Shown: positions 31,029 through 53,623 of the stretch, piece by piece
Layout: each line of letters starts with the position of its first letter
How positions within the stretch are numbered: position 1 is the stretch's first letter
DNA from: a virus
Virus record (IMG/VR): IMGVR_UViG_3300005681_000033
Location: 32,001-96,000 of that record
DNA: 64,000 bases
Direction: 5' to 3' (one strand)
Program-made: the position numbers and the translations under genes
The notes under the pieces: generated by a model
Told to the model about the DNA's origin: nothing
The model's database searches: none
The model's input: only the letters and a program-made list of their open reading frames with translations

Positions 31029-32786
31029 CGTCTTGACTTGACTGACCAGCTTGATGTGTCGGTCGATCACCCATGTATGGTTTATGACTCTTAGATTTTC
31101 CACCCATTTTTGGATGATGTTGAGGTCTGTTTTTCAAACCAGCCTTATTGTGGTTGGTTGCAGTTGGATCGCCGTCAAAATCTTTCAAAAATCCAGTAGT
31201 TCCTTGTCTCCAGGATTCAGAGCCAGTACGACCATCGATAACTTTTAATTTACCGTGATGCACAGCACCAAGCGGCGGTTGCGGCTTGGGAATGTGTTTC
31301 GTACCCTTGTCTGGCAGGTTCTTAGGGTCTTTCGGAGCCTGCCCGTTTACTTTTTTTCAGATGGTTTTTCATCATTAGGTTGTGCATCTTGGTTAGCTGG
31401 TTGAGCTACCTGGTCTTCACCTTGATCATCAGCTTCAGGCATTGCCTCAGCCATTTGATTAGTATCAGCAGCTTGTTGCATATCTTGCTCTGGAGCAAAA
31501 CCTAATTTTTTAGCCATAGAAATCATAGAACGTAACATGGTTAATGTTGCATTATATAGATCAGGATTTTGTTCGCGTGCTTGCTCTAGCATCATTTTGT
31601 TGTCTTTGAAAGCTAACAATGCATTTGCAATATCTTGTTTCAATTCTTGATGATCAGCATCATCAGCAGAATCATCACCTTCAGGCGACATTTCATCACC
31701 TTCTTGATCATCAGACATATCGTCATGAATCATATCTGCTAATGGATCTTCGTCGCCAGAAGCTGTATCTTCAGAACTTAATTCTTGATCGTCTGAATCT
31801 TCTTCGGAGTCTTCGAACTCACCTTCATGAGGAGCATGATGACCATCAAAAGAATCATCTTCAGAATCATTATCTGGAAGGTCGTCGCTTTGGTCTGGAG
31901 CGTCTTCCATATCTGCCTCGTCTTCTTGTTGCTCACCGTCAGCCGTTCCAAAATCTTCTTCAGTTTTTCCATCGATTTCTCCGTGTTTTTGTTTAGGAGA
32001 TTTGTTTGCAGGTGCAGAATCATCAGGACTATTTAAAGCTTCTTCGTTGTCGTCGGACACATCATCCTCATTTCCAATTGGAGCTTCATCAGAATCATCA
32101 GAATCTGAATCAGCATCTTGTGCGTTAGGGTCAGCTGCTGGTGGTGTAGCAGGTGCAGGTTTATTCATAGCTTTGTTTTTTGGCATAGCTTTGTTATCTT
32201 GAATATTTGTATTTGCTTCAGCCTCTGCACCTTCTTCAGCAGGAGCTTTTGGAACAATACTGTCTTCCTCAGCACCTTCTTCTGGTGCTACTTCTTCAGC
32301 TTGTGATTCGTTATCTTCCATAGCTTGATCTTCTAGATCACCTTCAGCTGGAATTTCTGGAGCTTGGTCAATATCTTGTGATGGATCTTCATCACTAGAT
32401 TCGTCTGAAAGATAATCTTCCATATTAGGATCATAGTGAATCGTTTGATTTTTACCATTCATTTTGCCATAGATTAGGGCTTTAGAAGCCTGTGACATAG
32501 AAGCGCCCACACCAACAGTTAAACCATGACCAGACGATTCTTGATAATCTTGTCTGATGGAATCCATTTGCGCAAGAGCGTCGTCTGGAACTAAATAAAT
32601 AGCTTCATCTCCAGAGCCAGTGATTTTTTTACCACCAATTCCCTCTGCCCATTCATCGATCTTTTTGTGTGCTTGATCAATAGTAGAACTTGCGTTCGCT
32701 AAATCCTGGTGATCATCATTGGCAATTGCGTTACCAATTCTAGTACCAACATCATCTCCGTTCACCGCCAAGTAGACATTACCCAT
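31021..32786 (-). CDS. predicted -1 frameshift fusion product (~588 aa) of the mCpol-like gene with a basic 109-aa extension
   Basis: A_AAA_AAG at 31356-31350 directly before TAA; -1 frame open 31350-31021; pseudoknot 6 nt downstream. Confidence 0.7.
31303..31356 (-). promoter_or_regulatory. programmed -1 ribosomal frameshift signal (slippery heptamer + H-type pseudoknot)
   Basis: A_AAA_AAG; stem GGCAGG(31343-38)/CCTGCC(31318-13); loop ACCCT(31328-24) pairs with AGGGT(31307-03). Confidence 0.75.
31347..32786 (-). CDS. mCpol-like (minimal CRISPR polymerase / nucleotide cyclase palm) domain fused to long acidic disordered region
   Basis: YLAVNGDDVG...ND...L...S...GG..I..SGDE...LTVGVG....A.KAL..GK..GKN in first ~120 aa. 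Confidence 0.7.
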   Translation of the reverse strand: MGNVYLAVNGDDVGTRIGNAIANDDHQDLANASSTIDQAHKKIDEWAEGIGGKKITGSGDEAIYLVPDDALAQMDSIRQDYQESSGHGLTVGVGASMSQASKALIYGKMNGKNQTIHYDPNMEDYLSDESSDEDPSQDIDQAPEIPAEGDLEDQAMEDNESQAEEVAPEEGAEEDSIVPKAPAEEGAEAEANTNIQDNKAMPKNKAMNKPAPATPPAADPNAQDADSDSDDSDEAPIGNEDDVSDDNEEALNSPDDSAPANKSPKQKHGEIDGKTEEDFGTADGEQQEDEADMEDAPDQSDDLPDNDSEDDSFDGHHAPHEGEFEDSEEDSDDQELSSEDTASGDEDPLADMIHDDMSDDQEGDEMSPEGDDSADDADHQELKQDIANALLAFKDNKMMLEQAREQNPDLYNATLTMLRSMISMAKKLGFAPEQDMQQAADTNQMAEAMPEADDQGEDQVAQPANQDAQPNDEKPSEKK

Positions 32787-33324
32787 TTTGCAACTCCTTA
32801 ATTTTATTACTTTTCTTTAAATTTTCTGAAGCTGGCAAATACTGCAAATTCCAAGGAACATGCAATCCACAAACATCTGGATGATTTAAAGGAATGATAT
32901 GATCGACATGAAATCCTTTTGGACAATTGTTGTAAATATCTTTAATTTCATTCATTACATTTGTAAAAGTAGCTTTTTGAACTTTAGCTCTTCTAATACT
33001 TGCTTTATAAGCAATTTTACTTTTGTTATTTGAAGCCCATTGTTTTTCTCTAGCTCTATACTTTTCTTTATTTGCTAAATAATAGTTTTTACGATACTCA
33101 AGTATTTCTGGCTTGATTGCAATCAATCTTGAATATTCTTTCATTTTTGAAATACCATAGTCACTTGATCTATATTTTTTATCTGCTTTGGATTGCCAAG
33201 ATTTTACCTTATCTTTATTCCTTGCTCTATATTGTTTTTGATAAGTATAATGACAAGTTTTACACCATCTCTGTGTAAACTCTGTTAGATTTTTCTCTAC
33301 TTTGCATTTCGTACATTTTTTCAT
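32779..33324 (-). CDS. HNH homing endonuclease
   Basis: N-terminal CxxC pairs; HVDHIIPL...CGLHVPWNLQYL...N. Confidence 0.85.
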   Translation of the reverse strand: MKKCTKCKVEKNLTEFTQRWCKTCHYTYQKQYRARNKDKVKSWQSKADKKYRSSDYGISKMKEYSRLIAIKPEILEYRKNYYLANKEKYRAREKQWASNNKSKIAYKASIRRAKVQKATFTNVMNEIKDIYNNCPKGFHVDHIIPLNHPDVCGLHVPWNLQYLPASENLKKSNKIKELQNG

Positions 33325-36200: not shown

Positions 36201-36845
36201 CTAATTGATTTTATTGCTTTTCTTTAAATTATCAACCATCCAAAGAGGTTGTAAATTCGTATAATGACACGCCTTAATGATTTCTTCTCTGTCCGTTAGA
36301 TTAAAACTTGACAATGGCTTGATGTGATCGATATGCCAACCAAATTTACCGTAGTTATTCCAAGACATATTTTTCTCAAATTTTGTTTCTATGTATTTTT
36401 TAAAAAAATCTAGAGTACAACCTAGATCTTTTATAGCAGAACCAGGTTTATTTCTATTGATTGCGTTATTTAGCCTAGTTCTTAGATTACAAGCAATGCG
36501 AAATTGTAAATCTTCTTTTTTTCTCTTTTTGTGATTAGTAACGCTTTTTTTAATTAAAATATTTCTATTAGCTTCGTAATATGCCTTGCTTTTTGCTTTA
36601 ATTTTATCTGGATTTTTCAGGCTATAGTTTTTATAAATAGTTTTCATTTTTTCTACATTGTTTTTTCTATAAAAACCATTTTTAGCCAATTCTTTTGTTT
36701 TGTTTTTGTTGTAATACACTTGTCTGTATTGTTTTTGACAAATTTTACAAATATCTCGAAAACCTGTTTTTGAAGAACAATGTTTGTTAAACTCAGTTAT
36801 TTCTTTAATATTTTGGCATTTTTTGCAAAAATGTGTTGTGTTCAT
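36201..36845 (-). CDS. HNH endonuclease
   Basis: CxxC pairs; WHIDHIKPLSSF...HYTNLQPLW..DN..KSNK. Confidence 0.85.
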   Translation of the reverse strand: MNTTHFCKKCQNIKEITEFNKHCSSKTGFRDICKICQKQYRQVYYNKNKTKELAKNGFYRKNNVEKMKTIYKNYSLKNPDKIKAKSKAYYEANRNILIKKSVTNHKKRKKEDLQFRIACNLRTRLNNAINRNKPGSAIKDLGCTLDFFKKYIETKFEKNMSWNNYGKFGWHIDHIKPLSSFNLTDREEIIKACHYTNLQPLWMVDNLKKSNKIN

Positions 36846-39800
36846 TTTTCTTGTTTTTTAATGTTTTTTACCGGTGGGTGTAGCTGATTCATAAGCTTTT
36901 GGACATAATGATGATCTTTAAATTGTCTACCATTTTTGATTGCTTTTTTCGTACCTGCAATCCCATTTAACCATGCGTAACCAATATGCATTGGGTTTTC
37001 ACCTAGTGCTTTTACGATATGGTCATAATGCTTAGAAGCAATTAAATGCTCAAGTTTTGGGTTTTTGTCCATATAATCATGAAACTCTTGACCTGTTAAA
37101 CCTAAAGCAGCTGAGTGAGCTTGCATTAAATTTGGAATTCTTTTAATTGTCTCTCGAATAACAACCGGCATTAATCCATAACTTCCGTAGGCTTTGTCAC
37201 CCTTAAAGAGTCCAGATTTCATTTCTGCATGGTCTGTGTTTTTACCATTAGATGATTCGATAAATTTAATTCCGCTCAACACCCGATCTTTTTTTGTAGG
37301 AGTAGTTGGCTTGTTTTCGACAACTTTTGGTTGGGTTGGCTGTGGTACCTGAGTTTGTTTAGAAGTATCCATCGGAGCCATAGTTCCAGCGGCAATTGCT
37401 AGTCCTGCAATCCCTGATTTGATCTTGTTTGAAATATCACCTTTTTGTAATGGTTGTAACACGATTGCCTCTCGCTTTCCAAACTTTTTACGTTTGAATT
37501 CTTCAGCTCTTTGTTGACGCTGTACCATTCTTTTATGGTCGTCTTGCCAAGCATTTGGTAATTCTTTTTCAGAAGCTTTTGCCTGTGCAGTTAGGTTAAT
37601 TTTTTGATTGAGATCTTTTCTAGGTTCCTTTGCTAATTCTACAATTTTAGGGTTTGCGTGTGCTATTTTACCTTTGTGGTTTACAATAACTTCGTGTTCT
37701 GTTCTAAACTGAGTGTTTTCGTCTGGAATTAATGTAGCATTTGGTACGTTATGAATGTGTGATTCTGGAATCCAAGCCGATACCACACGTGGGCTTTTGC
37801 CAAGATTTTCAAGGTGGTCACTAGCAAAACCACTAGCTACTTTGTAACTTGGTGTCCAAGATGTAAAAGAATTTGGAGGATAGTTGGCAACGCCATTGAT
37901 ATGATTTGTTTGAAATTCAGATTCCGCCATACCTCGATGTAACAAGAACATTCTCTCGCCTGTTTTTGGATGACGTCTAACCTGTGTTTTTCCTGTTAAT
38001 TTATGTAGGGCTCTGATTTTCGCATTGGCGTGAATTTCAGGGACGTTTTGACGAGCATCTTGATCATCACCTTCTTTAGTCCAGTTTTCAGTAGCCTTGT
38101 GATCTTCAGGATTTAAGTTTTTATCAGGATTAAAAGGTGCGAGTCTGTTCATTGCACCCTTCATCATGATAATTTCACGTTTCTTTAATTGCATTTGACT
38201 GTAAACAGATTGTACGCTATTTTTAGTAGTATTTTTTTCTGGTTGATGTGTGTTTAATTTATGCGGATTAACTATAACCTCATGTTCATTTTTTAAATTT
38301 TCCCTTAAAGAATGATCTTGTTGATTTTGATTTTTAATAGAAAACATTGGAATGCTATGTATGTGTTTTACAGGAATCCAAGAAGACATGGTTTTTGGAC
38401 CAGACATATCAATCTTTTTTCCATATGTTGATTCTTGTTCTTGAATATCATTTGGATTTTCCATGGCATTTCTAAAATAATCTTGAGCGAAGTTATGTGC
38501 TGTATTGTAATTAGGCGTCCAAGAAGTTTTATCATATGTATGATTATTATTTTCTATTGTATTGTGATGTTCTATTGGATGCATTCCTCTATGTAATAAA
38601 ACCTCAAGCTCTCCACTATTTGGATTTTTTCTTGTTTGTGTTTTTTTATAAAGATTAAGCAATGCTCTTTGTCTAGCATTTCCCACTACAGAAGGAACAT
38701 TATCCCTATTAAAAGATGAAGCATTTACCCATTGTTTTGTATTGTTGTGATTCTGATCGGTTATATCTGCATTAGGGTTAAACGGAAATAATCTTTGTTT
38801 AGCACCTTTCATCATAATGATTTCACGTTTCTTTAAACCACCAAGCTGTTTGTAAATAGAGTTGTGCTCGCTGTCCATGGCCCAATCTGGCAATACAGTA
38901 GCTTTTTGATCTGCATAAATTGTATTTGCAGGATTTTTTCTATTGTTCTCTCCATGGGGTCCAAAATTAACCCATGAATTTTGACCGCGAGTTTCTGCCG
39001 TCAATGCTTTCTGAGCCATTGGAGAATACATTTGCATATGGTTTTTCCATGCATTCTCTTCACCTTCAGCACCAAATCCATGGCCTTCTTTAGCATGGCC
39101 AAAATAATCATGTACAATTCTAAACACATCGTTGGCAACCATTGGTTGACCTTCATGCATGTGTTCAGTTGGTTGTAACATTGGATGTGCAGAATCCGCC
39201 TGATTGGGGTCGGAGCCATATCCACTTTCCGTTGGGAAATACCAAATATGATTATTATTGTGAATGTCGTGAAACAGGTCTTTAGAAGTTTTATATGGAT
39301 TTTCTTGTCCAGGTTTGATTTTAGAAATCTTTAAACCTGAATTTAAAATATGTTTAAACTGATCGTTAGTTTCTTTAACTAGAGCCTGATAAGCTTGTTG
39401 GACGTGTTGGGCTTGAGGTTCGTGATTTGCTTGATGATAGGCATCAGCAATACGCTTCGCACGCGTCGGGTCAACTTTGACAGCTGGCATCTTGTGTTGT
39501 AATCTCATTCCTTTAGAAGCTGCATACCGATCAGCAACACCTCTAATTTTATCACTACCTTTGTCAGTAGGTTTAGGCTTATTCATCCATGGAAAATCGG
39601 TTGGTAATGCACCACCAATACCCTTGGCTGCGTTTTCTTCATTTTGAGCACGTATTTTTTCTTGCTTAGAAGCACCGGCTACCATTTTATTGGCAACGTT
39701 GGTTTGTCGTTCATTTATGGCATGGCCAACTTCTTCTTCAGAGTATTCCTTACCACCAGCACCAATATGGTTGTCAGACTTGATCTGTTTAAGTCGATCT

Positions 39801-40786
39801 AAACCAATATGCTTTGATGGTGACTGAATACCCTTTTGAATGTTATTTAAGGACTCTTCTGACTCCACAGGAGTTTCATGGTACAAACCAACAACACCAC
39901 GCATATCTTCACGCTCATGTTGAGAGTTATAAAAACCATGAAACCCTCGCTTTTTTAGCTCTCCGTGTAATTCGTCACGGGTAACGATCCCTGGATTAAG
40001 GGTTTGACCTGATTGCTTCAGGTGTTGACTGACCTTGTCTTTGTCTAGACCAAGATCGTATAATTTAGCTTCTTGTGTTTTAACATGATATTTAGAATTC
40101 GAACCTTGAGTAACCAAATCTTCTGTTGGAGAATCCTGTCTATAGAAAAAAGACACAGGATGTTCTGGACGACCGTATTTAGAAGATGAATCTTTGATTC
40201 GATTGCCCTGATGAATTGGGTTGATTGACTTCAAACCTTGAGTTGGTGAATAATGAATCAAGGTTAATTCATCTTCGCTCTTTTTAACATAACCTTCTGG
40301 TTTCAATTTAGACATTTCTGGTTCATGGAAATTTTCCATGTCAAAAGAATGGGTAAAGGTAGTACCGTCTTTTAAGGTCGAAAAATAATCTTCAGGTGGT
40401 CGTTTATGGAAGTTTGTGCCTTGACCTTTTAAATGTTGGCCTGCGTGTTCACCGTGGTGGAAATGCATCTCATGATTGTAACCGTCTGAGTAAATACTCG
40501 ATTCTTGACCAAGTCCTTCAGCAAGCTTTTGTAAATATCTAACTGCGTGTTTATTTGGATTGTGAACCAAAATGGAGTTTTCTGGACTACCATAATGACC
40601 TTGTATTACATCGAAACGATAGCCTTTTTTAGTAAGCAAGTCTTGCACACCTTGATGATCAAGATTGTATTTAACTGGATAACGTGGATTTTCTGCAGAA
40701 AAGATAAAATGAGGCTTTCGAGCGTTGACAGAATCAACCTCGGTTGTTAATGGATTTTTAACTGATTGCAGTGTCTTTTTATACAT
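36842..40786 (-). CDS. polyvalent virion polyprotein: SAM-lyase-like, 3 ART-like, HDxxGH domain, lytic transglycosylase-like
   Basis: SAENP..GHYG..E.S..GQES; HYS..FFY..LYD..GFHG; VHDYFGH..GEENAW..ETRGQNSW; 2x LHRGM..SWTP..EHEVIV; IESSNG..AYG.YGLMP. Confidence 0.75.
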   Translation of the reverse strand: MYKKTLQSVKNPLTTEVDSVNARKPHFIFSAENPRYPVKYNLDHQGVQDLLTKKGYRFDVIQGHYGSPENSILVHNPNKHAVRYLQKLAEGLGQESSIYSDGYNHEMHFHHGEHAGQHLKGQGTNFHKRPPEDYFSTLKDGTTFTHSFDMENFHEPEMSKLKPEGYVKKSEDELTLIHYSPTQGLKSINPIHQGNRIKDSSSKYGRPEHPVSFFYRQDSPTEDLVTQGSNSKYHVKTQEAKLYDLGLDKDKVSQHLKQSGQTLNPGIVTRDELHGELKKRGFHGFYNSQHEREDMRGVVGLYHETPVESEESLNNIQKGIQSPSKHIGLDRLKQIKSDNHIGAGGKEYSEEEVGHAINERQTNVANKMVAGASKQEKIRAQNEENAAKGIGGALPTDFPWMNKPKPTDKGSDKIRGVADRYAASKGMRLQHKMPAVKVDPTRAKRIADAYHQANHEPQAQHVQQAYQALVKETNDQFKHILNSGLKISKIKPGQENPYKTSKDLFHDIHNNNHIWYFPTESGYGSDPNQADSAHPMLQPTEHMHEGQPMVANDVFRIVHDYFGHAKEGHGFGAEGEENAWKNHMQMYSPMAQKALTAETRGQNSWVNFGPHGENNRKNPANTIYADQKATVLPDWAMDSEHNSIYKQLGGLKKREIIMMKGAKQRLFPFNPNADITDQNHNNTKQWVNASSFNRDNVPSVVGNARQRALLNLYKKTQTRKNPNSGELEVLLHRGMHPIEHHNTIENNNHTYDKTSWTPNYNTAHNFAQDYFRNAMENPNDIQEQESTYGKKIDMSGPKTMSSWIPVKHIHSIPMFSIKNQNQQDHSLRENLKNEHEVIVNPHKLNTHQPEKNTTKNSVQSVYSQMQLKKREIIMMKGAMNRLAPFNPDKNLNPEDHKATENWTKEGDDQDARQNVPEIHANAKIRALHKLTGKTQVRRHPKTGERMFLLHRGMAESEFQTNHINGVANYPPNSFTSWTPSYKVASGFASDHLENLGKSPRVVSAWIPESHIHNVPNATLIPDENTQFRTEHEVIVNHKGKIAHANPKIVELAKEPRKDLNQKINLTAQAKASEKELPNAWQDDHKRMVQRQQRAEEFKRKKFGKREAIVLQPLQKGDISNKIKSGIAGLAIAAGTMAPMDTSKQTQVPQPTQPKVVENKPTTPTKKDRVLSGIKFIESSNGKNTDHAEMKSGLFKGDKAYGSYGLMPVVIRETIKRIPNLMQAHSAALGLTGQEFHDYMDKNPKLEHLIASKHYDHIVKALGENPMHIGYAWLNGIAGTKKAIKNGRQFKDHHYVQKLMNQLHPPVKNIKKQEK

Positions 40787-43537: not shown

Positions 43538-43815
43538 CAGACACACAACAAAAATTTTTAGAAATCTCAAAGCGATATGAAGCTCTTAAAGAAGAAATGA
43601 AGGCTTTAAAACCTACTCTTCAAGAGTTGATGACTGAATTAAAAGTTGGAACTCATTTTCAAGACCCAGAAACACAACTTGTTTATCGCATTGAAGTTCC
43701 GACTGGAACTTATGTGTCTTTTGACCCTATCACTTACACTCGTACTAAAAAGGTTGGCGAGGATAAAGGTTCTTTGGCTAAGAGTGAAGCTCAAAAGCTT
43801 GGATATAATATCTAA
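43534..43815 (+). CDS. hypothetical protein
   Basis: AGGAG RBS. Confidence 0.7.
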   Translation: MTDTQQKFLEISKRYEALKEEMKALKPTLQELMTELKVGTHFQDPETQLVYRIEVPTGTYVSFDPITYTRTKKVGEDKGSLAKSEAQKLGYNI

Positions 43816-44207
43816 TTATTCATCCAGTATTTTAATGCAATGTTGTGTTGGATAGGCACGTGCAAATCTGACACAACATAATTTGGATTCATATAGTGCC
43901 ATGAATCTACCTCTTTGTCCGGGTCTTTCGATGCATCTAACATTTGCTTTGGGTCTGGGGTCACATGGAACAAATACAATAAAAGATTTTGTTCTTTATC
44001 CCAATGCGAAGCAACAAGCTTGATATCTTCTACATCCAAACCTGTTTCTTCTTTTAGTTCTCTAATAGCACCTTCATATGGATCTTCGCCCTCATTCAAG
44101 TGTCCACCCGGAACTGTCCATTTTTTATTGTCGTTGCGAACGCCCATTAAGATATTATCGCTATGATCTGTTAATAGACAAATTGCAACTCTTCGCGAAT
44201 TAGCCAT
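43812..44207 (-). CDS. Nudix hydrolase
   Basis: Nudix box GGHLNEGEDPYEGAIRELKEETGL. Confidence 0.92.
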   Translation of the reverse strand: MANSRRVAICLLTDHSDNILMGVRNDNKKWTVPGGHLNEGEDPYEGAIRELKEETGLDVEDIKLVASHWDKEQNLLLYLFHVTPDPKQMLDASKDPDKEVDSWHYMNPNYVVSDLHVPIQHNIALKYWMNN

Positions 44208-44212
44208 TTATC

Positions 44213-46333
44213 CTACTTCTTTTTTTCGTTTTTGTAAAGAAATTCAGATTTGGCAATTTTCATTTTTGGCTGTGCCTGTGGCATTTCTGGTTGAGCAGGC
44301 ATTGGAGCTGGTTGATTTTGAGCTACCGGTTGTTGTGTAGGCATTGGAGCTGGACGCGGTTTCATTCGCACTACATTTGGAGGCAATTCTTGCTGCATTT
44401 GTGGTTGAACGGCTTGTTTTTTAGCTTGTCTATCCAACACAGCACCTGGCTGCCTATTTGTAATAGCAGCGTCTAAGGTTCTGTCTGCCTTAGACCATCC
44501 TTTATCTGGGTGAAATTTCATTTGACCACTAAAAATAGCATGTAATCGTGCTTTGTTTTCAGGAGAAAGGTTTCTCGCTTGACGAATTAAATCGACATAC
44601 TTTTCCTTTTTGCCTGGAACCTTAACACGAGTGGCAATCACCTTATTTGGATCTTCAACGGAAGTTCTCTGAGGTGCATTTTTATCCTTTACTGGAATTG
44701 ACACCTGACTTGCTGGCATCCCAAGAAAACGACGAATCAACTGCTCTGCAGCCATTGGTTGCACTTCACCTTGAGATCGTTTTTGTTGCATATATCCATA
44801 TTGCTTTTGAACATCCGAATATTGCTTATCCATTAAACGCTGTCCATCTTCAAGACTAACACCTTCAGGCATTAACATTAAATGTGCAATTTCATGAACA
44901 ATTGCTTCAGGATTCCATTGAGCTTCGAATTTACCTGAACGCCAATCTGGTTTATCCACACCAATTTCATTGTCTGCTTTTCTACGCTCACCTGTCTTGT
45001 CGTTTACCTTACCACCTGATGGTTGCAAATCAAGACCTAAAAACTTATCAACGAATTTTTTGATATGATTGATGTGCTTATCACGCATTGCAGATTTCGC
45101 TGCAGGTTGAGAATTGGTTCCAAATACCTTTTTACGTTGTTCGCGTACATTTTTAGAGGCTTTGTTAATATCTGAGTGTCCAAGCTTACGAACAATAACA
45201 AATTCAGATTTAACAACATCGACTTCAGACTTAGGAAGGTTTGGTTTTGGCATATCTTTCAATTCTTTCAATTTTCTAGAATGCATTTGACGTGCAACTT
45301 GTTTTTGTCTTTCTTTTCCACCAGATTTAATAGGTGTTTTTTTATTACTTCCTGCGATAGCCATGACACCAGCTCTACTATGAGTTCCAGTCCCAACATC
45401 CGACGTATGAACTCCCTTTAAATCTTTTGCCAATGCGTCACCCTGTACTTTTTCAGATGAAACTCCAGCACCACAAGACGCAACAAGAGCTTTACGAACA
45501 TTTGAATCGTATTTACTAAGCTGTTTTTTCTCGTTCTTTTGCCATGCTGGTTTCATTTTTGGCATTTTACCGTAAATTTGAGTGCCAGTTTTGGCTTTTG
45601 GTTCAGCTGCATAATTGATTTTATCACCAACGTGCATAGTGCTCGGAGCATTTTTTGGACTGAAGATGCGTTTAGGGATACGACCACTTCCAGGAGGAGA
45701 ATTCAAATCTGCTTTGTAAATGAAAGGAATCTCACCTTTCATGATTTGACACGAAGCTTCGTCTGCTTTAGACATAACATCTTGAATAAATGCAAATTTA
45801 CCAGAATCTGACTGTTTTTGGGCTTTGTCGTCTACTTTCAATTCGTAAGCTTCACAAACTTTATTGCAAGGAGTCAAAGTAACAGATACTTTTCTTGCAA
45901 TACATTTTGTAATAATAGCACCTTGTTTTTCAACACGAGAGCCTTCGATAGAAAAATTGATTAGTTTTTTGGCTTCTTTGTTAAGAGGTGTCATTTGGTC
46001 GTACTTGAGCATTGCAGCTACTTCACTAGCAGCTTTGTGACCAACCGAATCAAATAATTCACCAGCAACATAAATAAAAGGCATTTTAAGCTTATCCCAA
46101 AATTCCTTTTGATGTTCATTTTCGCAATCAGAGCGTTTTAAGATTTTCTTGGCTTCCCAAATCTTACCTACAATAGAAGAAGGGCTTTTAGAGTCATGTT
46201 CGTAGTTAAAAGTTCCATCTTTTGTAAGACTTGTAATATCTACGCCTTCAATTTGAATACGTTCGCCAGAACTATCTAAGTGTTCTGAGGCAGCGATGCC
46301 ATGAATGAAAGTTCCACGTTTTTGATCAGACAT
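44213..46333 (-). CDS. prohead (capsid maturation) protease with long C-terminal extension containing an HExxH domain
   Basis: GIAASEHLDSSGE..NYEH..VG..FSIEG..VSVT..P.N in first ~165 aa; HEIAH at aa 480-484. Confidence 0.8.
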   Translation of the reverse strand: MSDQKRGTFIHGIAASEHLDSSGERIQIEGVDITSLTKDGTFNYEHDSKSPSSIVGKIWEAKKILKRSDCENEHQKEFWDKLKMPFIYVAGELFDSVGHKAASEVAAMLKYDQMTPLNKEAKKLINFSIEGSRVEKQGAIITKCIARKVSVTLTPCNKVCEAYELKVDDKAQKQSDSGKFAFIQDVMSKADEASCQIMKGEIPFIYKADLNSPPGSGRIPKRIFSPKNAPSTMHVGDKINYAAEPKAKTGTQIYGKMPKMKPAWQKNEKKQLSKYDSNVRKALVASCGAGVSSEKVQGDALAKDLKGVHTSDVGTGTHSRAGVMAIAGSNKKTPIKSGGKERQKQVARQMHSRKLKELKDMPKPNLPKSEVDVVKSEFVIVRKLGHSDINKASKNVREQRKKVFGTNSQPAAKSAMRDKHINHIKKFVDKFLGLDLQPSGGKVNDKTGERRKADNEIGVDKPDWRSGKFEAQWNPEAIVHEIAHLMLMPEGVSLEDGQRLMDKQYSDVQKQYGYMQQKRSQGEVQPMAAEQLIRRFLGMPASQVSIPVKDKNAPQRTSVEDPNKVIATRVKVPGKKEKYVDLIRQARNLSPENKARLHAIFSGQMKFHPDKGWSKADRTLDAAITNRQPGAVLDRQAKKQAVQPQMQQELPPNVVRMKPRPAPMPTQQPVAQNQPAPMPAQPEMPQAQPKMKIAKSEFLYKNEKKK

Positions 46334-46995: not shown

Positions 46996-47709
46996 ATGAA
47001 GAAAAAATATTCTGATAAAGATATGGCCGCTCTGATTGGTGAAATTGAAACTCATTTCAACACTGTGTTGAAGTCACAAACTGAACCAACAGATCTTAAA
47101 AAATCTGAAGAAGCAAATGAAGTAAAAGTTGAGGAAACTCAAGTAGCTACACCTGCTCCTACTGAATTTGGTTACGACGAAAAAGACATTCAAGAAATGA
47201 ACGAAATGTATTCATCTATGACAAAATCTGAAGCTAAAGCTCACTTTGAAGCTCTGAAAGCTGCCCACTTTCAAGAAACTCAAGAAGCTCCTGCTAAAGA
47301 AGAGGTTATTGCTAAGTCTGAAATCAAAGAAGTTCAAGCTTCTGAAAACGACGAAACAAAACTTTTAAAGTCAGAAATTGAAACACTGAAATCAGAAAAA
47401 GAAAAACTGGAAAAATCATTTAACGATCTAACTGCAAAATTGATTGCGTTTGTTAAAGGCTCTAAAGCTCCAAAGCAAAAAGCCGTTACTCAATTGCAAT
47501 ATGTAGCAAAATCTGAAGATGAGGTTAAGGTTGAAGAGAAAAAAGAAGATGTGTCTAAATTAGACAAAACTGAAATTTCTCGAAGACTTACTGCTCAAAT
47601 CCGTTCTGGAAAACTAGAAAAAAGCGAGCGCGAAAAAATCAACAATTTCTACCAATCAGGTAGTAAAAATATTGAGTCTATTAGACATCTATTAACAGGA
47701 GGAAACTAA
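46996..47709 (+). CDS. capsid scaffolding protein
   Basis: E/K-rich coiled coil directly before capsid gene; nine xxKS motifs. Confidence 0.75.
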   Translation: MKKKYSDKDMAALIGEIETHFNTVLKSQTEPTDLKKSEEANEVKVEETQVATPAPTEFGYDEKDIQEMNEMYSSMTKSEAKAHFEALKAAHFQETQEAPAKEEVIAKSEIKEVQASENDETKLLKSEIETLKSEKEKLEKSFNDLTAKLIAFVKGSKAPKQKAVTQLQYVAKSEDEVKVEEKKEDVSKLDKTEISRRLTAQIRSGKLEKSEREKINNFYQSGSKNIESIRHLLTGGN

Positions 47710-47710
47710 A

Positions 47711-49105
47711 ATGGTCGAACAACTAAACGATCTATTAAAAGCCCTTGAAGCAGGTTCATACAACGCTGCTCCAGGTCAGCTTGTACAAGGAGCTGCGTTG
47801 CAGGTGGAAGATCTTTCTCCTGTGATGGAAAACGTCACTTTTGACGACAGCCACATCAAACTTCAGAAGATGCTTAGCATTAAAGATGCAAAAAGCACTC
47901 TGATCCAATTCAACCGTCAGCTTGACTACGGTATTTTCGGCGGATCTGCTCAGTATGAAGGCGGAATCGGTGAAGAAGATACATCGAACTACGTTCGTGC
48001 TATCGTTCCAATGGCTTACTACAGCACAACTCGACGAGTTTCTGTTGCAGCTAACCTAATTGGTGCAGTAGATGGTAAAAAAGCGGAAGATAGATCAGCT
48101 TCTGATGCTGCTATGAAACTTTCTGCGGATATCGAATTCGATTCTTTCCGTGGACAAGCAGATTTCAGCAATGCTGGTATTTTCGATGGTAACCCAAATG
48201 CTATCGCTGATATCCCTAACATGGTTGGTGTTGATGCTCAAATCCGTATGTCTGACAGCTTGTCAAACACACAAGATTTGATGTTTGCTGAATACGGTTC
48301 AGATCAAACAGTTATCGTTTCTGTAAACGGAACTTTGACTCAAACTTCAATCGAAGATATGTCAGTTAAATCTGCAATGCAACATGGTTCTGCAGATAAA
48401 TTAATTCTTGACCCAATTTCTTTAAGTGCTTACAACAAAATTGCTTTTGCAAAAGAGCGTATCATGTTGTCAGGTTCACCTCAAGAAGCTACTGGTGCTG
48501 AGTTGAGAAAACAATGGACAAGCTCTGCTCTTGTTTCATTAGAGCCTTCTCGTTTCCTTTCTGGAAAAACTCGCCCTGCACGTTCTCGCGCTGGTTCTCC
48601 TGCGGCTCCTGCTACTTTAACAAGTGCTGCTGCTGCTAACCCTGCTTCTAACTTGGCTGCTGGTACATACGTGTACAAAGCAACTGCAGTTAATGAGCGT
48701 GGTGAGTCAGTTGAGAAAGTTGATGATGGTGGAGCACAAGCTGTTGCCGCTGGTGAAGCTGTTACTTTAACTATCGCTCCTGTTTCTGGTGCTAAATACT
48801 TTAACGTATATCGTTCTGAAGACGGTGGAAGCGCAGCTTCTGCAAAATTCATCGGTAAAGTTAAGGCTGCTGGTTCTGGTAATACTTCTTTCATCGACCT
48901 TGGCAATCGCCGACCTGGTTCTGTTACTGGATTCTTAATCCAAGCTAACACAATGGGTATGCACCAATTGTCTCCATATAGCCGATTGAAATTAGCTCTT
49001 AGTGACTTGTCACTTCCAGAAGCTCACTTCCGATTCCTTTGCTTGGCTGCTTACCAACCACGCAAAAACGTATTGGCTGAGAACATCGAAGGTCAGTTAT
49101 CTTAA
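47711..49105 (+). CDS. major capsid protein (Herelleviridae A511/K-like)
   Basis: LLKA..G...G.AL..E.L...T.....ST..Q..R...G....E.G; IE..SF.G; C-terminal FN3-like Y.YK.TAVN..GES..YFNVYR. Confidence 0.88.
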   Translation: MVEQLNDLLKALEAGSYNAAPGQLVQGAALQVEDLSPVMENVTFDDSHIKLQKMLSIKDAKSTLIQFNRQLDYGIFGGSAQYEGGIGEEDTSNYVRAIVPMAYYSTTRRVSVAANLIGAVDGKKAEDRSASDAAMKLSADIEFDSFRGQADFSNAGIFDGNPNAIADIPNMVGVDAQIRMSDSLSNTQDLMFAEYGSDQTVIVSVNGTLTQTSIEDMSVKSAMQHGSADKLILDPISLSAYNKIAFAKERIMLSGSPQEATGAELRKQWTSSALVSLEPSRFLSGKTRPARSRAGSPAAPATLTSAAAANPASNLAAGTYVYKATAVNERGESVEKVDDGGAQAVAAGEAVTLTIAPVSGAKYFNVYRSEDGGSAASAKFIGKVKAAGSGNTSFIDLGNRRPGSVTGFLIQANTMGMHQLSPYSRLKLALSDLSLPEAHFRFLCLAAYQPRKNVLAENIEGQLS

Positions 49106-51865: not shown

Positions 51866-53623
51866 ATGAAAAAAGTTAAAACACCTGCTAAAATGTTTAA
51901 CAGCAATTTAGTCGAGTTAGAAAATATCGTAGTGAGAACTATCGATAAAATTGACCGCATTGTAGGCTCTTCACTGGGTCCAGGTGGACGCAATGTGATT
52001 ATTGAGTCCGAATTACCCGGCATTCCGAATAAGAACACTAAGGACGGAGTGACGATCTTTAAATCATTAGGGTCAAATGACGCATATGAACATCTCATTA
52101 TCGAACAGACTCGTGATGTGGCTATTCGAACGGTAAACGAAGCTGGTGATGGAACTACCACAGCCACAGTTGTAGCCTCAGCTTTTATTAAGAATCTTTT
52201 TCGTTATTGCGCAGAAAATAGAAAAAACAGCCCTCAAAAAGTTACACGTGAAATCCAAAAGATTGTTGAGGGTAAGCTAATCCCACAAATTCGAGAATCT
52301 GCAATTAAAGTAACTCCTAAAAACCAAGATCTATTAGAAAAAGTAGCCACTGTATCTGCAAACGGCGATAAGGAAATGGCCAAGGCTGTGATGGAAGCCT
52401 TTGAAAAGGTTGGCTTTGGAAGTAATTCACATGTTACTATTCAAGAGCTTTCTGGCCCTTCTGGATATGAAACAGAATTGATTCGTGGCTTTCCTATCGA
52501 AAAAGGATATGAAGAATCAATTGGTAAATTTCATGCTAGTTTTATTAACGACCAGGGACACCAAAGATGCGTTCTTGACAATCCTCTATTTATTTTATTT
52601 GATGGAAATATCAATGATTTAGTACAGGTACATGAAATTTTAACACATATTGGTCAAGAATATGTATCTGGAAATGCTGATTTTAAAAACGTAGTCGTTG
52701 TTGCTCATAAATTCCAAGATCAAGTTTTAACCAACTGGGCATGGAATTTTAGTAATCCCAACACCATTAATGTTGTTCCTCTGCAAACACCTATGGTACC
52801 TATGGTTAACGGTCAAATGCAATTCTTAATGGATCTATCAGCGTTCACGGGCGCAAAAATTTTTGATATGAACAATCCTTTGATCGAGGCTACTCCTGAC
52901 GATCTTGGTAAAAACATGAGTAAGATCGAAATTAGTCGTTTTCGCACTACTATTGTTGGAGAATCAGACGCTACAAATGTAGAAGTGAGAGCTGAAGAAA
53001 TTCAAACAATGATTAAAAATGCAGCCTCTAAACTTGAAAAGAATATTTTAGAAGAGCGTCTTGGTAAATTAACCAGTGGCATTGCACAGTTAAAGATTTA
53101 TGGTGCCTCTAATGGTGAATTAAAAGAGAAATCAGATCGAGCAGAAGATGCTGTTTGTGCAGTTCGAGCTGCCATTAACCATGGTTGTTTACCTGGTGGA
53201 TGTCGAACACTGATTAATTTAGCAATGAGTTTGTCAGAAGAAACAGACCCTATGGTTCATTCTGTCATCATCCCTTCTTTATTTGCACCGTTTCATAGAT
53301 TACTTGAAAATGCTGGATATAGTCCTGAAGAGATCGAGAAGCTTATTGTTAAAATGATCGAAAAGCCAAATCATGTTTATGATGTTGAAAATGCTACTTT
53401 TGGAGATTTCAAAAAAATGGGAGTGTATGATGCTGCCATGGCCGTTGAACAGGCTCTAAAAAATGCAGTTTCTATTTCATCGGTTATGGGAACTCTAGGT
53501 GGTATTGTTGCTTTCCCTAGAGACAATCAATTAGAAAATCAAGAACATAAAGAAGCTATGAATTTCCAAAGAACTATTGACAATGCACAGTCTTTGGCAA
53601 ACGAAGCAAATGAGAGGCCATAA
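51866..53623 (+). CDS. groEL: GroEL-like chaperonin
   Basis: SLGPGGRNV, TKDGVT, AGDGTTTATV, SANGD, ERLGKL, EDAV.A.RAA..G.LPGG. Confidence 0.92.
   Translation: MKKVKTPAKMFNSNLVELENIVVRTIDKIDRIVGSSLGPGGRNVIIESELPGIPNKNTKDGVTIFKSLGSNDAYEHLIIEQTRDVAIRTVNEAGDGTTTATVVASAFIKNLFRYCAENRKNSPQKVTREIQKIVEGKLIPQIRESAIKVTPKNQDLLEKVATVSANGDKEMAKAVMEAFEKVGFGSNSHVTIQELSGPSGYETELIRGFPIEKGYEESIGKFHASFINDQGHQRCVLDNPLFILFDGNINDLVQVHEILTHIGQEYVSGNADFKNVVVVAHKFQDQVLTNWAWNFSNPNTINVVPLQTPMVPMVNGQMQFLMDLSAFTGAKIFDMNNPLIEATPDDLGKNMSKIEISRFRTTIVGESDATNVEVRAEEIQTMIKNAASKLEKNILEERLGKLTSGIAQLKIYGASNGELKEKSDRAEDAVCAVRAAINHGCLPGGCRTLINLAMSLSEETDPMVHSVIIPSLFAPFHRLLENAGYSPEEIEKLIVKMIEKPNHVYDVENATFGDFKKMGVYDAAMAVEQALKNAVSISSVMGTLGGIVAFPRDNQLENQEHKEAMNFQRTIDNAQSLANEANERP

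Follow-up and report, generated by a model that had tools for sequence, protein, structure and literature searches.

A modular polyprotein in the late structural block of a myovirus: predicted capsid cargo with candidate prohead protease sites in its linkers

The stretch of viral DNA analysed here, below called the window, comprises 64,000 nucleotides (positions 32,001 to 96,000 of the IMG/VR record IMGVR_UViG_3300005681_000033). One of its genes encodes a protein of 1314 amino acids (aa), P0001, which was found to be a chain of evolutionarily independent modules, at least five of them putative enzymes. The reading that is moderately favoured is that P0001 is a late, capsid-packaged polyvalent cargo polyprotein, which would be cut at its linkers by the prohead protease and whose enzymes would be injected. 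In the proposed course of events, independently evolving enzyme cassettes have been concatenated behind a short MYKK leader, in the order A, B, L, C, D1, D2 and E. The prohead protease, which is of the HK97/Herelleviridae type and is encoded at positions 44213-46333, would most likely cut linkers of the type hydrophobic-x-K-[S/G/A] during head maturation, the freed enzymes would be injected along with the DNA, and module A would deplete S-adenosylmethionine (SAM) or SAM-derived signals. An initial annotation of the window had described such a kit, and overall it was partly supported, i.e., it was largely right, packaging and cleavage are unproven, and its assignment of module B is wrong or unproven. 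Its claim of an undescribed system was overstated, because the theme is that of the polyvalent proteins of Iyer et al. 2017 (PMC5512222).

The open reading frame (ORF) is real, as annotated, but it lies on the minus strand (36842..40786, 1314 codons), the plus strand being full of stops. A Shine-Dalgarno sequence (AGAGG) is located 5 nt ahead of the ATG, and the upstream frame is open for just two codons. The source record represents a complete virus of 166,783 bp with a G+C content of 37.5%, and the phage is an Mx1-like myovirus with a tail sheath. Its major capsid protein shares 52% identity with that of Myxococcus phage Mx1 and about 25% with capsid proteins of the Herelleviridae, e.g., of CP-51. 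The gene for P0001 belongs to the late structural block, with the capsid/protease region on one side and the sheath on the other, and Mx1 has a counterpart of 1479 aa, annotated as "NUDIX hydrolase", at the same genomic place. E-, B- and ART-PolyVal-type modules as well as K-S-E linkers are present in this counterpart. Mx1 is cultivable and has the homologous protein, and, thus, the idea is directly testable. A megablast search of phage records gave no match, and the comparison of whole P0001 with Pfam and PDB sequences gave no usable match. A scan of IMG/VR with the single protein as query also found nothing, whereas an alignment-based scan did find matches.

A search of 5.8 billion proteins yielded 136 relatives, 120 of which were analysed. 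BLAST and iterated hidden Markov models (HMMs) from these 120 relatives were used to segment P0001, without reference to the K/[SG] strings that the initial annotation had marked as putative cleavage sites. The resulting segments were A (aa 24-155), B (175-309), L (319-400), C (414-637), two copies of D (661-846 and 877-1041) and E (1117-1302). Among the relatives the modules vary in order and copy number, occur as insertions or are divided over two genes, with orders that include C-A-B-D-E, A-B-D-C-D-E, D-D-D-D-A and E-A-C-B-D. The partner domains include NUDIX, GNAT, mCpol, VTC, ART-PolyVal, DUF5661 and ParB-like domains and others. In three cases (L082, L085, L086) the L, B and E modules reside in an adjacent downstream gene (412-768 aa), i.e., the kit is split over two genes. 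With at least two disparate enzymatic domains, variable architectures and a phage late-gene context, P0001 belongs to the polyvalent class.

The initial annotation had suggested checking whether relatives swap modules at the linkers, and swaps as well as insertions were found exactly there. The first example is D1, an inserted divergent cassette with at most about 37% identity to any other D copy. D2 is an orthologous ADP-ribosyltransferase (ART) cassette, which shares 87% identity with the only D of P0002, the closest relative. The two copies of LKKREIIMMKGA that bracket D1 are identical at 33 of 36 nt, and their flanks have diverged. The second example is an extra module of about 150 aa, which is inserted in some relatives exactly at the B/L border, with the motif on both sides. 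This extra module (about aa 340-500 in P0005, P0010 and P0011) has the string LLDGYHRA, which is reminiscent of ParB/Srx-like DGxHR nucleases.

The modules are preceded by an N-terminal leader (aa 1-23, MYKKTLQS..., 40718..40786; like all further parts of P0001 on the minus strand), a candidate capsid-targeting or pro-peptide. Its pattern MYKK-hydrophobic-L-K-[SA] is kept in the relatives irrespective of whether A, C or D is the first module, and M1, Y2, K3 and K4 are invariant. A targeting or pro-peptide would be expected to be conserved in this way, regardless of the first module.

Next, the linkers were compared with the five annotated strings. All five were found at the residues that had been given, i.e., VKK/S at 169/170, IQK/G at 318/319, MMK/G at 660/661 and again at 876/877, and LQK/G at 1115/1116. 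Their proposed location at domain borders was also verified by the independent HMM segmentation, which placed each of them either between two modules or at the first residue of one. The A/B linker (aa 156-174, 40265..40321) contains V-K-K|S-E (K169/S170), and K169 and E171 are invariant in the relatives. The B/L border (aa 310-318, 39833..39859) ends with I-Q-K|G. The C/D1 linker (aa 638-660, 38807..38875) contains L-K-K-R-E and I-M-M-K|G (K660/G661), and LKKREIIMMK|G is repeated in the D1/D2 linker (aa 847-876, 38159..38248). The longest is the D2/E linker (aa 1042-1116, 37439..37663), with an invariant F-G-K-R-E (1102-1106) and L-Q-K|G (K1115/G1116). In collinear relatives every border retains the motif while its neighbours vary; at the B/L border it reads IQK/A, IAK/A, VEK/A, IEK/G or IVK/S, and before E it reads LQK/G, LSK/S, LAK/G or LTK/N.

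The distribution of the motif [LIVFMY]-x-K-[SAG] was quantified. It is not enriched over the whole of P0001, which contains eight copies compared to a shuffle mean of 5.9, but five of the eight lie at borders, which make up about 13% of the length (binomial ~1e-3, or ~7e-3 when the MMK/G pair is counted once). In the 120 relatives there were 8.65 copies per 1000 aa outside the modules and 2.89 inside, a 3.0-fold difference, and for control motifs (R in place of K, or the reversed motif) the ratio was 0.9. In addition, K-S-E or A-S-E recurs ahead of modules in the relatives. KSE was found outside modules in 158 unique contexts, versus 44 expected, and permutations of the same residues were found 30-46 times; in 59% of the cases a hydrophobic residue stands two positions before the lysine. 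The strict motif [LIVFMY]-x-[KA]-[SR]-E occurs four times in P0001, ending at E171, E655, E871 and E1106, and all four copies are in linkers.

A candidate for the cutting enzyme is encoded nearby. The prohead protease gene (44213..46333, minus strand, 706 aa) specifies a protein of which aa 9-157 are homologous to the head maturation protease of CP-51 (28% identity, E 4e-12). The protein consists of the protease domain (about aa 1-170), motif-rich spacers and a tail module of about 240 aa (aa ~388-630) that contains IVHEIAH (HExxH). The tail module has no Pfam match, but it is 50-66% identical to modules in polyvalent proteins that also carry C, and three KSE/ASE sites were counted in the protease tail. 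This recurrence indicates a common pool of modules for the protease tail and the polyprotein. Two relatives, P0061 and P0065, even start with a prohead protease domain (46% identical to that of the window) and have C downstream, and the gene for P0065 occupies the terminase-portal-protease position of its 128-kb contig.

The motif was also found in the head proteins. The scaffold-like protein (46996..47709, plus strand, 237 aa), which is encoded directly upstream of the capsid gene, contains nine hydrophobic-x-K-[SAG] sites versus a shuffle mean of 1.7, with KSE seven times and ASE once. In the scaffold of CP-51 there are 13 hydrophobic-x-K-[SG] sites versus a shuffle mean of 1.4, none of them with Glu next. 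For the Mx1 scaffold the enrichment was weaker, with five sites versus 1.8, i.e., about 3-fold in contrast to 5- to 9-fold in the source phage and CP-51. The major capsid protein (47711..49105, plus strand) begins with L-L-K10|A11-L-E-A-G, and the capsid N-termini of the source phage (K10|A11), Mx1 (K14|A15) and CP-51 (K26|A27) share L-x-K-A-L-[ES]-A-G. In Herelleviridae cleavage would follow the Lys, and none of the papers searched states the capsid cleavage site of this family. As expected for a prohead protease substrate, a protease of the Herelleviridae/HK97 type is encoded, and P0001 carries the motif of the scaffold and the capsid N-terminus.

Two further proteases contain near-copies of their capsid N-termini past the catalytic domain, that of Mx1 (L001 13002-16721; FAKAMEAGNFNAAPSTL versus LRKAMEAGNFNAKPSTL in the capsid protein) and that of CP-51 (L092 1818-2579; VEKALSAGYETNPEDMEGGETF versus LNKALSAGHEVNPLELQGGGAF). 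These near-copies may serve as an anchor that mimics the capsid protein, or may represent a shared cassette for cleavage.

At first the motif was read in this analysis as K-S-E with a cut after Glu, as in T4 and phiKZ. The frame K|[SAG] was then preferred, because the scaffold sites of CP-51 lack the Glu and the capsid N-termini share L-x-K-A. The scaffold sites of CP-51, the capsid N-termini and the conservation at the borders show that the common core is hydrophobic-x-K-[S/G/A], and that S-E is lineage-specific. Most simply, the scissile bond would be K|S, in agreement with CP-51 and the capsid N-termini.

Loading into the capsid and cutting by the prohead protease are well supported, though unproven, by the motif enrichment, the protease homology, the fusions of C with the protease and the shared tail module. 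Several points weigh against them. Three motif copies lie inside D2 and E (K997, K1195 and K1259), and, thus, a cut is not defined by the motif alone. MMKG also forms the conserved start of D and may be structural, and its two occurrences represent a single duplication. The strict motif stands ahead of module C in just 13 of 104 cases. No proteomic or expression data were found for the source phage or Mx1. The A, D and E copies of the window have no direct Pfam or PDB match, and the identities of these modules rest on homologous copies, motifs and one predicted fold with moderate Z-scores of at most 6.5. Furthermore, the HK97-like protease of P1 cleaves at E120|S121 (PMC9024508), and, therefore, a cut after the Glu of K-S-E was kept as a possible alternative to K|S. 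The last point is that polyvalent proteins that are packaged uncut are documented, e.g., the virion RNA polymerase of N4 (PMC5512222).

P0001 could likewise be packaged and injected uncut, as are the N4 polymerase or P1 DarB. The linkers would then be flexible tethers, and the motif would reflect composition or hot spots of recombination. The lack of enrichment over the whole protein is in agreement with this, and the near-identical linker DNA around diverged cassettes fits a role in recombination. However, KSE is 3-5 times more frequent than the tripeptides obtained by permuting its residues, and the motif has an additional conserved hydrophobic position. It is also strongly enriched in the scaffolds of the source phage and CP-51, and more weakly in that of Mx1, and scaffolds are classic protease substrates. 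Moreover, SAM lyases act as trimers with active sites at the subunit interfaces (PMC7877911), which is hard to square with a tethered chain of 1314 aa. Packaging without cleavage is thus regarded as rather unlikely, and release by the prohead protease is preferred.

The module that characterizes the family is C (aa 414-637, 38876..39547). The annotated HDxxGH domain was indeed found here, with H559-D560-x-x-G563-H564 invariant together with R556, E576, H583 and E598. Module C is the hub of the family, present in 113 of the 120 relatives with a mean column identity of 60%. A profile search of 1.84 billion representatives (clusters at 50% identity) retrieved 5,271 proteins, 3,338 of them at E<=1e-30, in which C occupies any position and which range from 356 to 5,633 aa. 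The initial annotation had proposed an AlphaFold2 (AF2) model and a structure search for each segment; these were run for D1 and C, and they revealed an ART fold for D1 and no match to a solved fold for C. The AF2 model of C has a predicted local distance difference test (pLDDT) score of 91.3 and places the invariant H, D, H, E, H and E on three helices. C has no Pfam family, no PDB profile match and no Foldseek match in PDB, the best structural match with VIA-align had a Z-score of 2.5, and a shape search of the Atlas led only to unnamed viral or bacterial clusters. C has the appearance of a metal-dependent enzyme. In Rhodococcus phage E3 the protein with the C domain, gp205, carries the annotation of a structural protein.

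These features of C bear on a further explanation, i.e., that C is a divergent metallopeptidase (MPTase) that cuts the linkers itself, possibly after injection, as has been proposed for the zincin-like MPTase hub. C is a hub as is the MPTase in the set of Iyer et al., its invariant residues lie on three helices, and the weak top structural matches include the minigluzincins abylysin and jannalysin, ArdC and LTA4 hydrolase. However, their Z-scores of 2.1-2.4 are at noise level, as is any value up to 2.5, and the histidines of H-D-x-x-G-H stand at i and i+5, a spacing that differs from that of the zincin motif HExxH. The linker motif also fills scaffold proteins that lack a C domain, that of CP-51 included, though no C search was made there. 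In addition, C often occurs alone with one partner, or is fused to the prohead protease itself. Self-processing by C is, therefore, considered improbable.

Module E (aa 1117-1314, 36845..37438) consists of a hydrophobic segment, a P/Q/T-rich spacer and an SLT-like domain. The hydrophobic segment (about aa 1121-1139) is the only one in the whole protein and precedes the SLT-like domain. The annotation as a hydrophobic segment plus a lytic-transglycosylase-like domain held, as five of the ten E copies match PF01464 (SLT; best E 8.4e-5) and E1177-S1178 and Y-G-L-M-P are invariant among the copies; SLT enzymes have a catalytic Glu-Ser with a G-L-M-Q-like motif after it. The copy of the window itself does not match PF01464, and a PDB profile search with E found nothing at a meaningful E-value. 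Sequence features thus predict that E is an SLT-like lytic transglycosylase.

A C-terminal hydrophobic segment with SLT resembles the lysin modules of tape-measure and ejection proteins, and the upstream neighbour of P0001 matches a PHROG labelled "tail fiber protein". P0001 might, therefore, be a tape-measure-like tail or baseplate component or a tail-tip lysin carrier, with the transglycosylase acting at the tip and the other modules travelling through the tube. However, the gene is located upstream of the sheath gene, and sheath, tube and a tape-measure candidate of 607 aa form a separate downstream block. Also, modules are exchanged with the prohead protease tail, C is fused to the protease in relatives, and the linker motif is that of the scaffold protein. 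A tail component is improbable, and P0001 as the tape measure itself was rejected on gene order.

Least probable is a non-virion late cytoplasmic protein, e.g., a multi-enzyme that shields progeny DNA or conditions the dying cell: direct evidence for a virion association of P0001 is lacking, and the T3 SAM lyase is a cytoplasmic early protein (PMC7877911), but the synteny of the structural block is kept across many relatives, a transglycosylase that follows a membrane-type segment, as well as ARTs and a SAM lyase, would be useful at entry and not in late infection, relatives fuse modules to the protease, and the E3 homologue is annotated as structural.

The identity of the cargo predicted for the capsid was analyzed further, starting with module A (aa 24-155, 40322..40717). 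The assignment as SAM-lyase-like was corroborated by homologous copies: eight of the 13 copies match PF23780 (S-AdoMet_lyase; best E 6.4e-14) and four of the 13 match DUF3293. The copy of the window has no Pfam match at E<=0.1 and is 20-57% identical to the 13 aligned copies; it is a probable member of the SAM-lyase family (PF23780/DUF3293-like), which has a trimeric PII-like fold. A profile search of PDB with A found nothing at a meaningful E-value. In the alignment G63, E69, S71 and Q94 are invariant, and Y65 and S96 are nearly so. The signature G-x-Y / E-x-S / Q-E-S is intact, and the order G63-x-Y65, E69-x-S71, Q94-E95-S96 corresponds to G56/Y58, E69/S71 and Q104/E105/S106 of Svi3-3, as matched by motif order. 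These residues of Svi3-3 (Gly56, Tyr58, Glu69, Ser71, Gln104, Glu105 and Ser106) are among the few that are conserved in active SAM lyases (PMC7877911). A phage SAM-AMP lyase with the SAM-lyase fold is known (PMC12255297), and, thus, the substrate of A could be SAM or SAM-AMP. Through its homologous copies A would belong to the same Pfam family as T3 SAMase, Svi3-3 and the SAM-AMP lyase AcrIIIB4, and the substrate-binding residues are kept. These three are small, free, early-expressed trimers, in contrast to A, which is the first module of a polyprotein from the late structural block.

The next modules were D1 (aa 661-846, 38249..38806; R733, S755, E834-x-E836) and D2 (aa 877-1041, 37664..38158; R951, S976, E1030-x-E1032). 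The claim that an R-S-E ART-like module is present twice was confirmed. The alignment of 22 D copies shows little or no variation in LLHR, (T)SW(T) and E-x-E-V-I-V, with R, S and ExE the same in every copy. In the model that AF2 gave for D1 (pLDDT 90.2), these motifs are located on the strands 72-80 and 99-102 and directly ahead of the strand 182-184. R-S-E ARTs have the catalytic Arg on the first core strand, Ser-x-Ser/Thr on the second and (Q/E)-x-E ahead of the last one. In an exhaustive VIA-align search of 48,161 chains nearly all of the top 50 matches had the ART fold, at moderate Z-scores of 6.5-3.8, among them Tpt1 (6.5), PARP16 (6.0), TreTu (5.5) and diphtheria toxin (5.0). The R-S-E toxins Vis, iota-like, C2-I, VIP2, ExoS and Certhrax align to D1 over 113-129 residues. 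In BFVD, weak structural matches of D1 to T4-type Alt, ModA and ModB were found (E 0.07-1.1). A Foldseek search of the model against PDB was not significant, and the consistent ART signal came from VIA-align alone. The Pfam scan of the 22 D copies gave a single DRAT match (E 0.071), a PDB profile search with D found nothing, and hhalign of D against ART-PolyVal gave a probability of 0.1%. D, thus, has an ART fold and an R-S-E signature and lies outside the described sequence families, since the profile searches found no family match. On the basis of the model, D1 and D2 are predicted to be arginine-type (R-S-ExE) ARTs.

Module B (aa 175-309, 39860..40264) is a conserved domain with invariant H178, S180, Y233, G281 and G284. 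It had been annotated as a His-type ART, and this was not upheld. The Pfam scan of 22 B copies and a PDB profile search gave no match. PF18760 (ART-PolyVal) was found in P0080, P0089 and P0111 on segments other than B, and hhalign of B against ART-PolyVal covered only the last 37 columns, with a probability of 62%. Membership of B in ART-PolyVal was rejected on these grounds. A language-model search placed B at 0.92 with clusters in which 12% of the members carry PF18760, and this remains a lead. B is followed by segment L (aa 319-413, 39548..39832), a conserved spacer that is present in only about 14 relatives.

Polyvalent proteins were predicted by Iyer et al. to be packaged into the head, injected and released by proteolysis, and they contain embedded peptidases, including assemblin-like ones, as well as lysozyme, ART, NUDIX, GNAT and ParB-type modules (PMC5512222). 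Like P0001, they combine many unrelated enzymatic domains on one polypeptide, with extreme shuffling of architectures and a late-gene setting. Four differences were found. Their hub is a zincin MPTase, in contrast to domain C with neither a Pfam family nor a known fold. The ARTs of P0001 are of the R-S-E type, which Iyer et al. set apart from the polyvalent-protein ARTs. Their text does not mention a SAM lyase module. Lastly, release of the P0001 modules is predicted at a defined linker motif common to the scaffold, unlike in polyvalent proteins as described.

Experimental precedents for protease-processed head cargo are the T4 Alt and internal proteins, the ejection proteins of phiKZ-like phages and the P1 Dar proteins. 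T4 Alt and the internal proteins are head-packaged, protease-processed and injected host modifiers; Alt is an R-S-E ART, and a short N-terminal capsid-targeting leader is removed at a motif of the gp21 prohead protease. T4 has one enzyme per protein, and the cut is made after (L/I)-x-E. P0001 is unlike T4, as it has six modules per chain, the motif hydrophobic-x-K-[SAG] and a protease of the Herelleviridae/HK97 type, and it has no sequence-level similarity to Alt. In phiKZ-like phages the cleavage motif is A/S/G-x-E. Many head-internal proteins of phiKZ-like jumbo phages (SPN3US, 201phi2-1) are cut by the maturation protease at a short consensus and later ejected (PMC10052503, PMC7411985). Their protease belongs to another clade, and the ejected proteins are mostly non-enzymatic or RNA polymerase subunits and not shuffled enzyme chains. 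The Dar proteins of P1 (DarB, DdrB and DarA) act in anti-restriction, are loaded into the capsid via an N-terminal signal, and some are processed, in a phage with an HK97-like protease (PMC9024508). They are, however, separate gene products with methylase/helicase and ParB domains, the P1 capsid is cut at E|S, and no module is common with P0001.

New in comparison to these systems appear to be the P0001 family with its hub C, a defined linker motif that also occurs in the scaffold, R-S-E ARTs and SAM lyases as polyvalent modules, and the module pool shared with the protease tail. A wider reading is tentative: the leader and linkers could be a plug-and-play cargo system of Mx1-like phages and many uncultured relatives, in which any enzyme cassette rides on the protease tail or on a separate polyprotein, is set free by the maturation protease and is recombined at the linkers, and C could be a new class of entry-stage enzymes. 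If the linkers are real protease sites, a single gene shows a changeable set of counter-defence enzymes that is loaded into the capsid. This cargo set would comprise SAM depletion, ADP-ribosylation of the host, opening of the wall and at least two further activities. Leader and linker motif would then be a simple rule to predict, and perhaps engineer, capsid cargo in thousands of uncultured phages. C stands out as an enzyme-like family of very large size and strong conservation, which is always found together with such cargo, and R-S-E ARTs and SAM lyases join the catalogue of polyvalent-protein modules.

The gene order around P0001 is kept in the relatives, where proteins of about 140 aa and 275 aa, the polyprotein, and proteins of about 172 aa and 290 aa follow each other. 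The structural block of the window is interrupted by two paralogous endonuclease VII/HNH-like ORFs (phrog_1035; 36201-36845 and 32779-33324, both on the minus strand), the first of which abuts the 3' end of the polyprotein gene. Both are probably homing endonucleases. In the relative L085 a GIY-YIG gene is present at the 5' side instead, and in the phage of P0065 (L093 1-3055) Pfam matches place an intein with a LAGLIDADG endonuclease within the large terminase.

Three further genes of the source phage were noted. An ORF of 479 aa in the structural block (31347-32786, minus strand) has an N-terminal mCpol domain (minimal CRISPR polymerase; PF18182, E 1.3e-9), followed by a very acidic region, and in relatives mCpol occurs as a module within polyvalent proteins, e.g., P0023. 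A free-standing NUDIX gene (43812-44207, minus strand, 131 aa) is located directly downstream of the protease gene, and NUDIX is a module of the polyvalent protein itself in Mx1, P0026 and P0055. The last example is a GroEL-type chaperonin (51866-53623, plus strand; phrog_5725, E 1.8e-92), which is encoded between the head genes and the large terminase.

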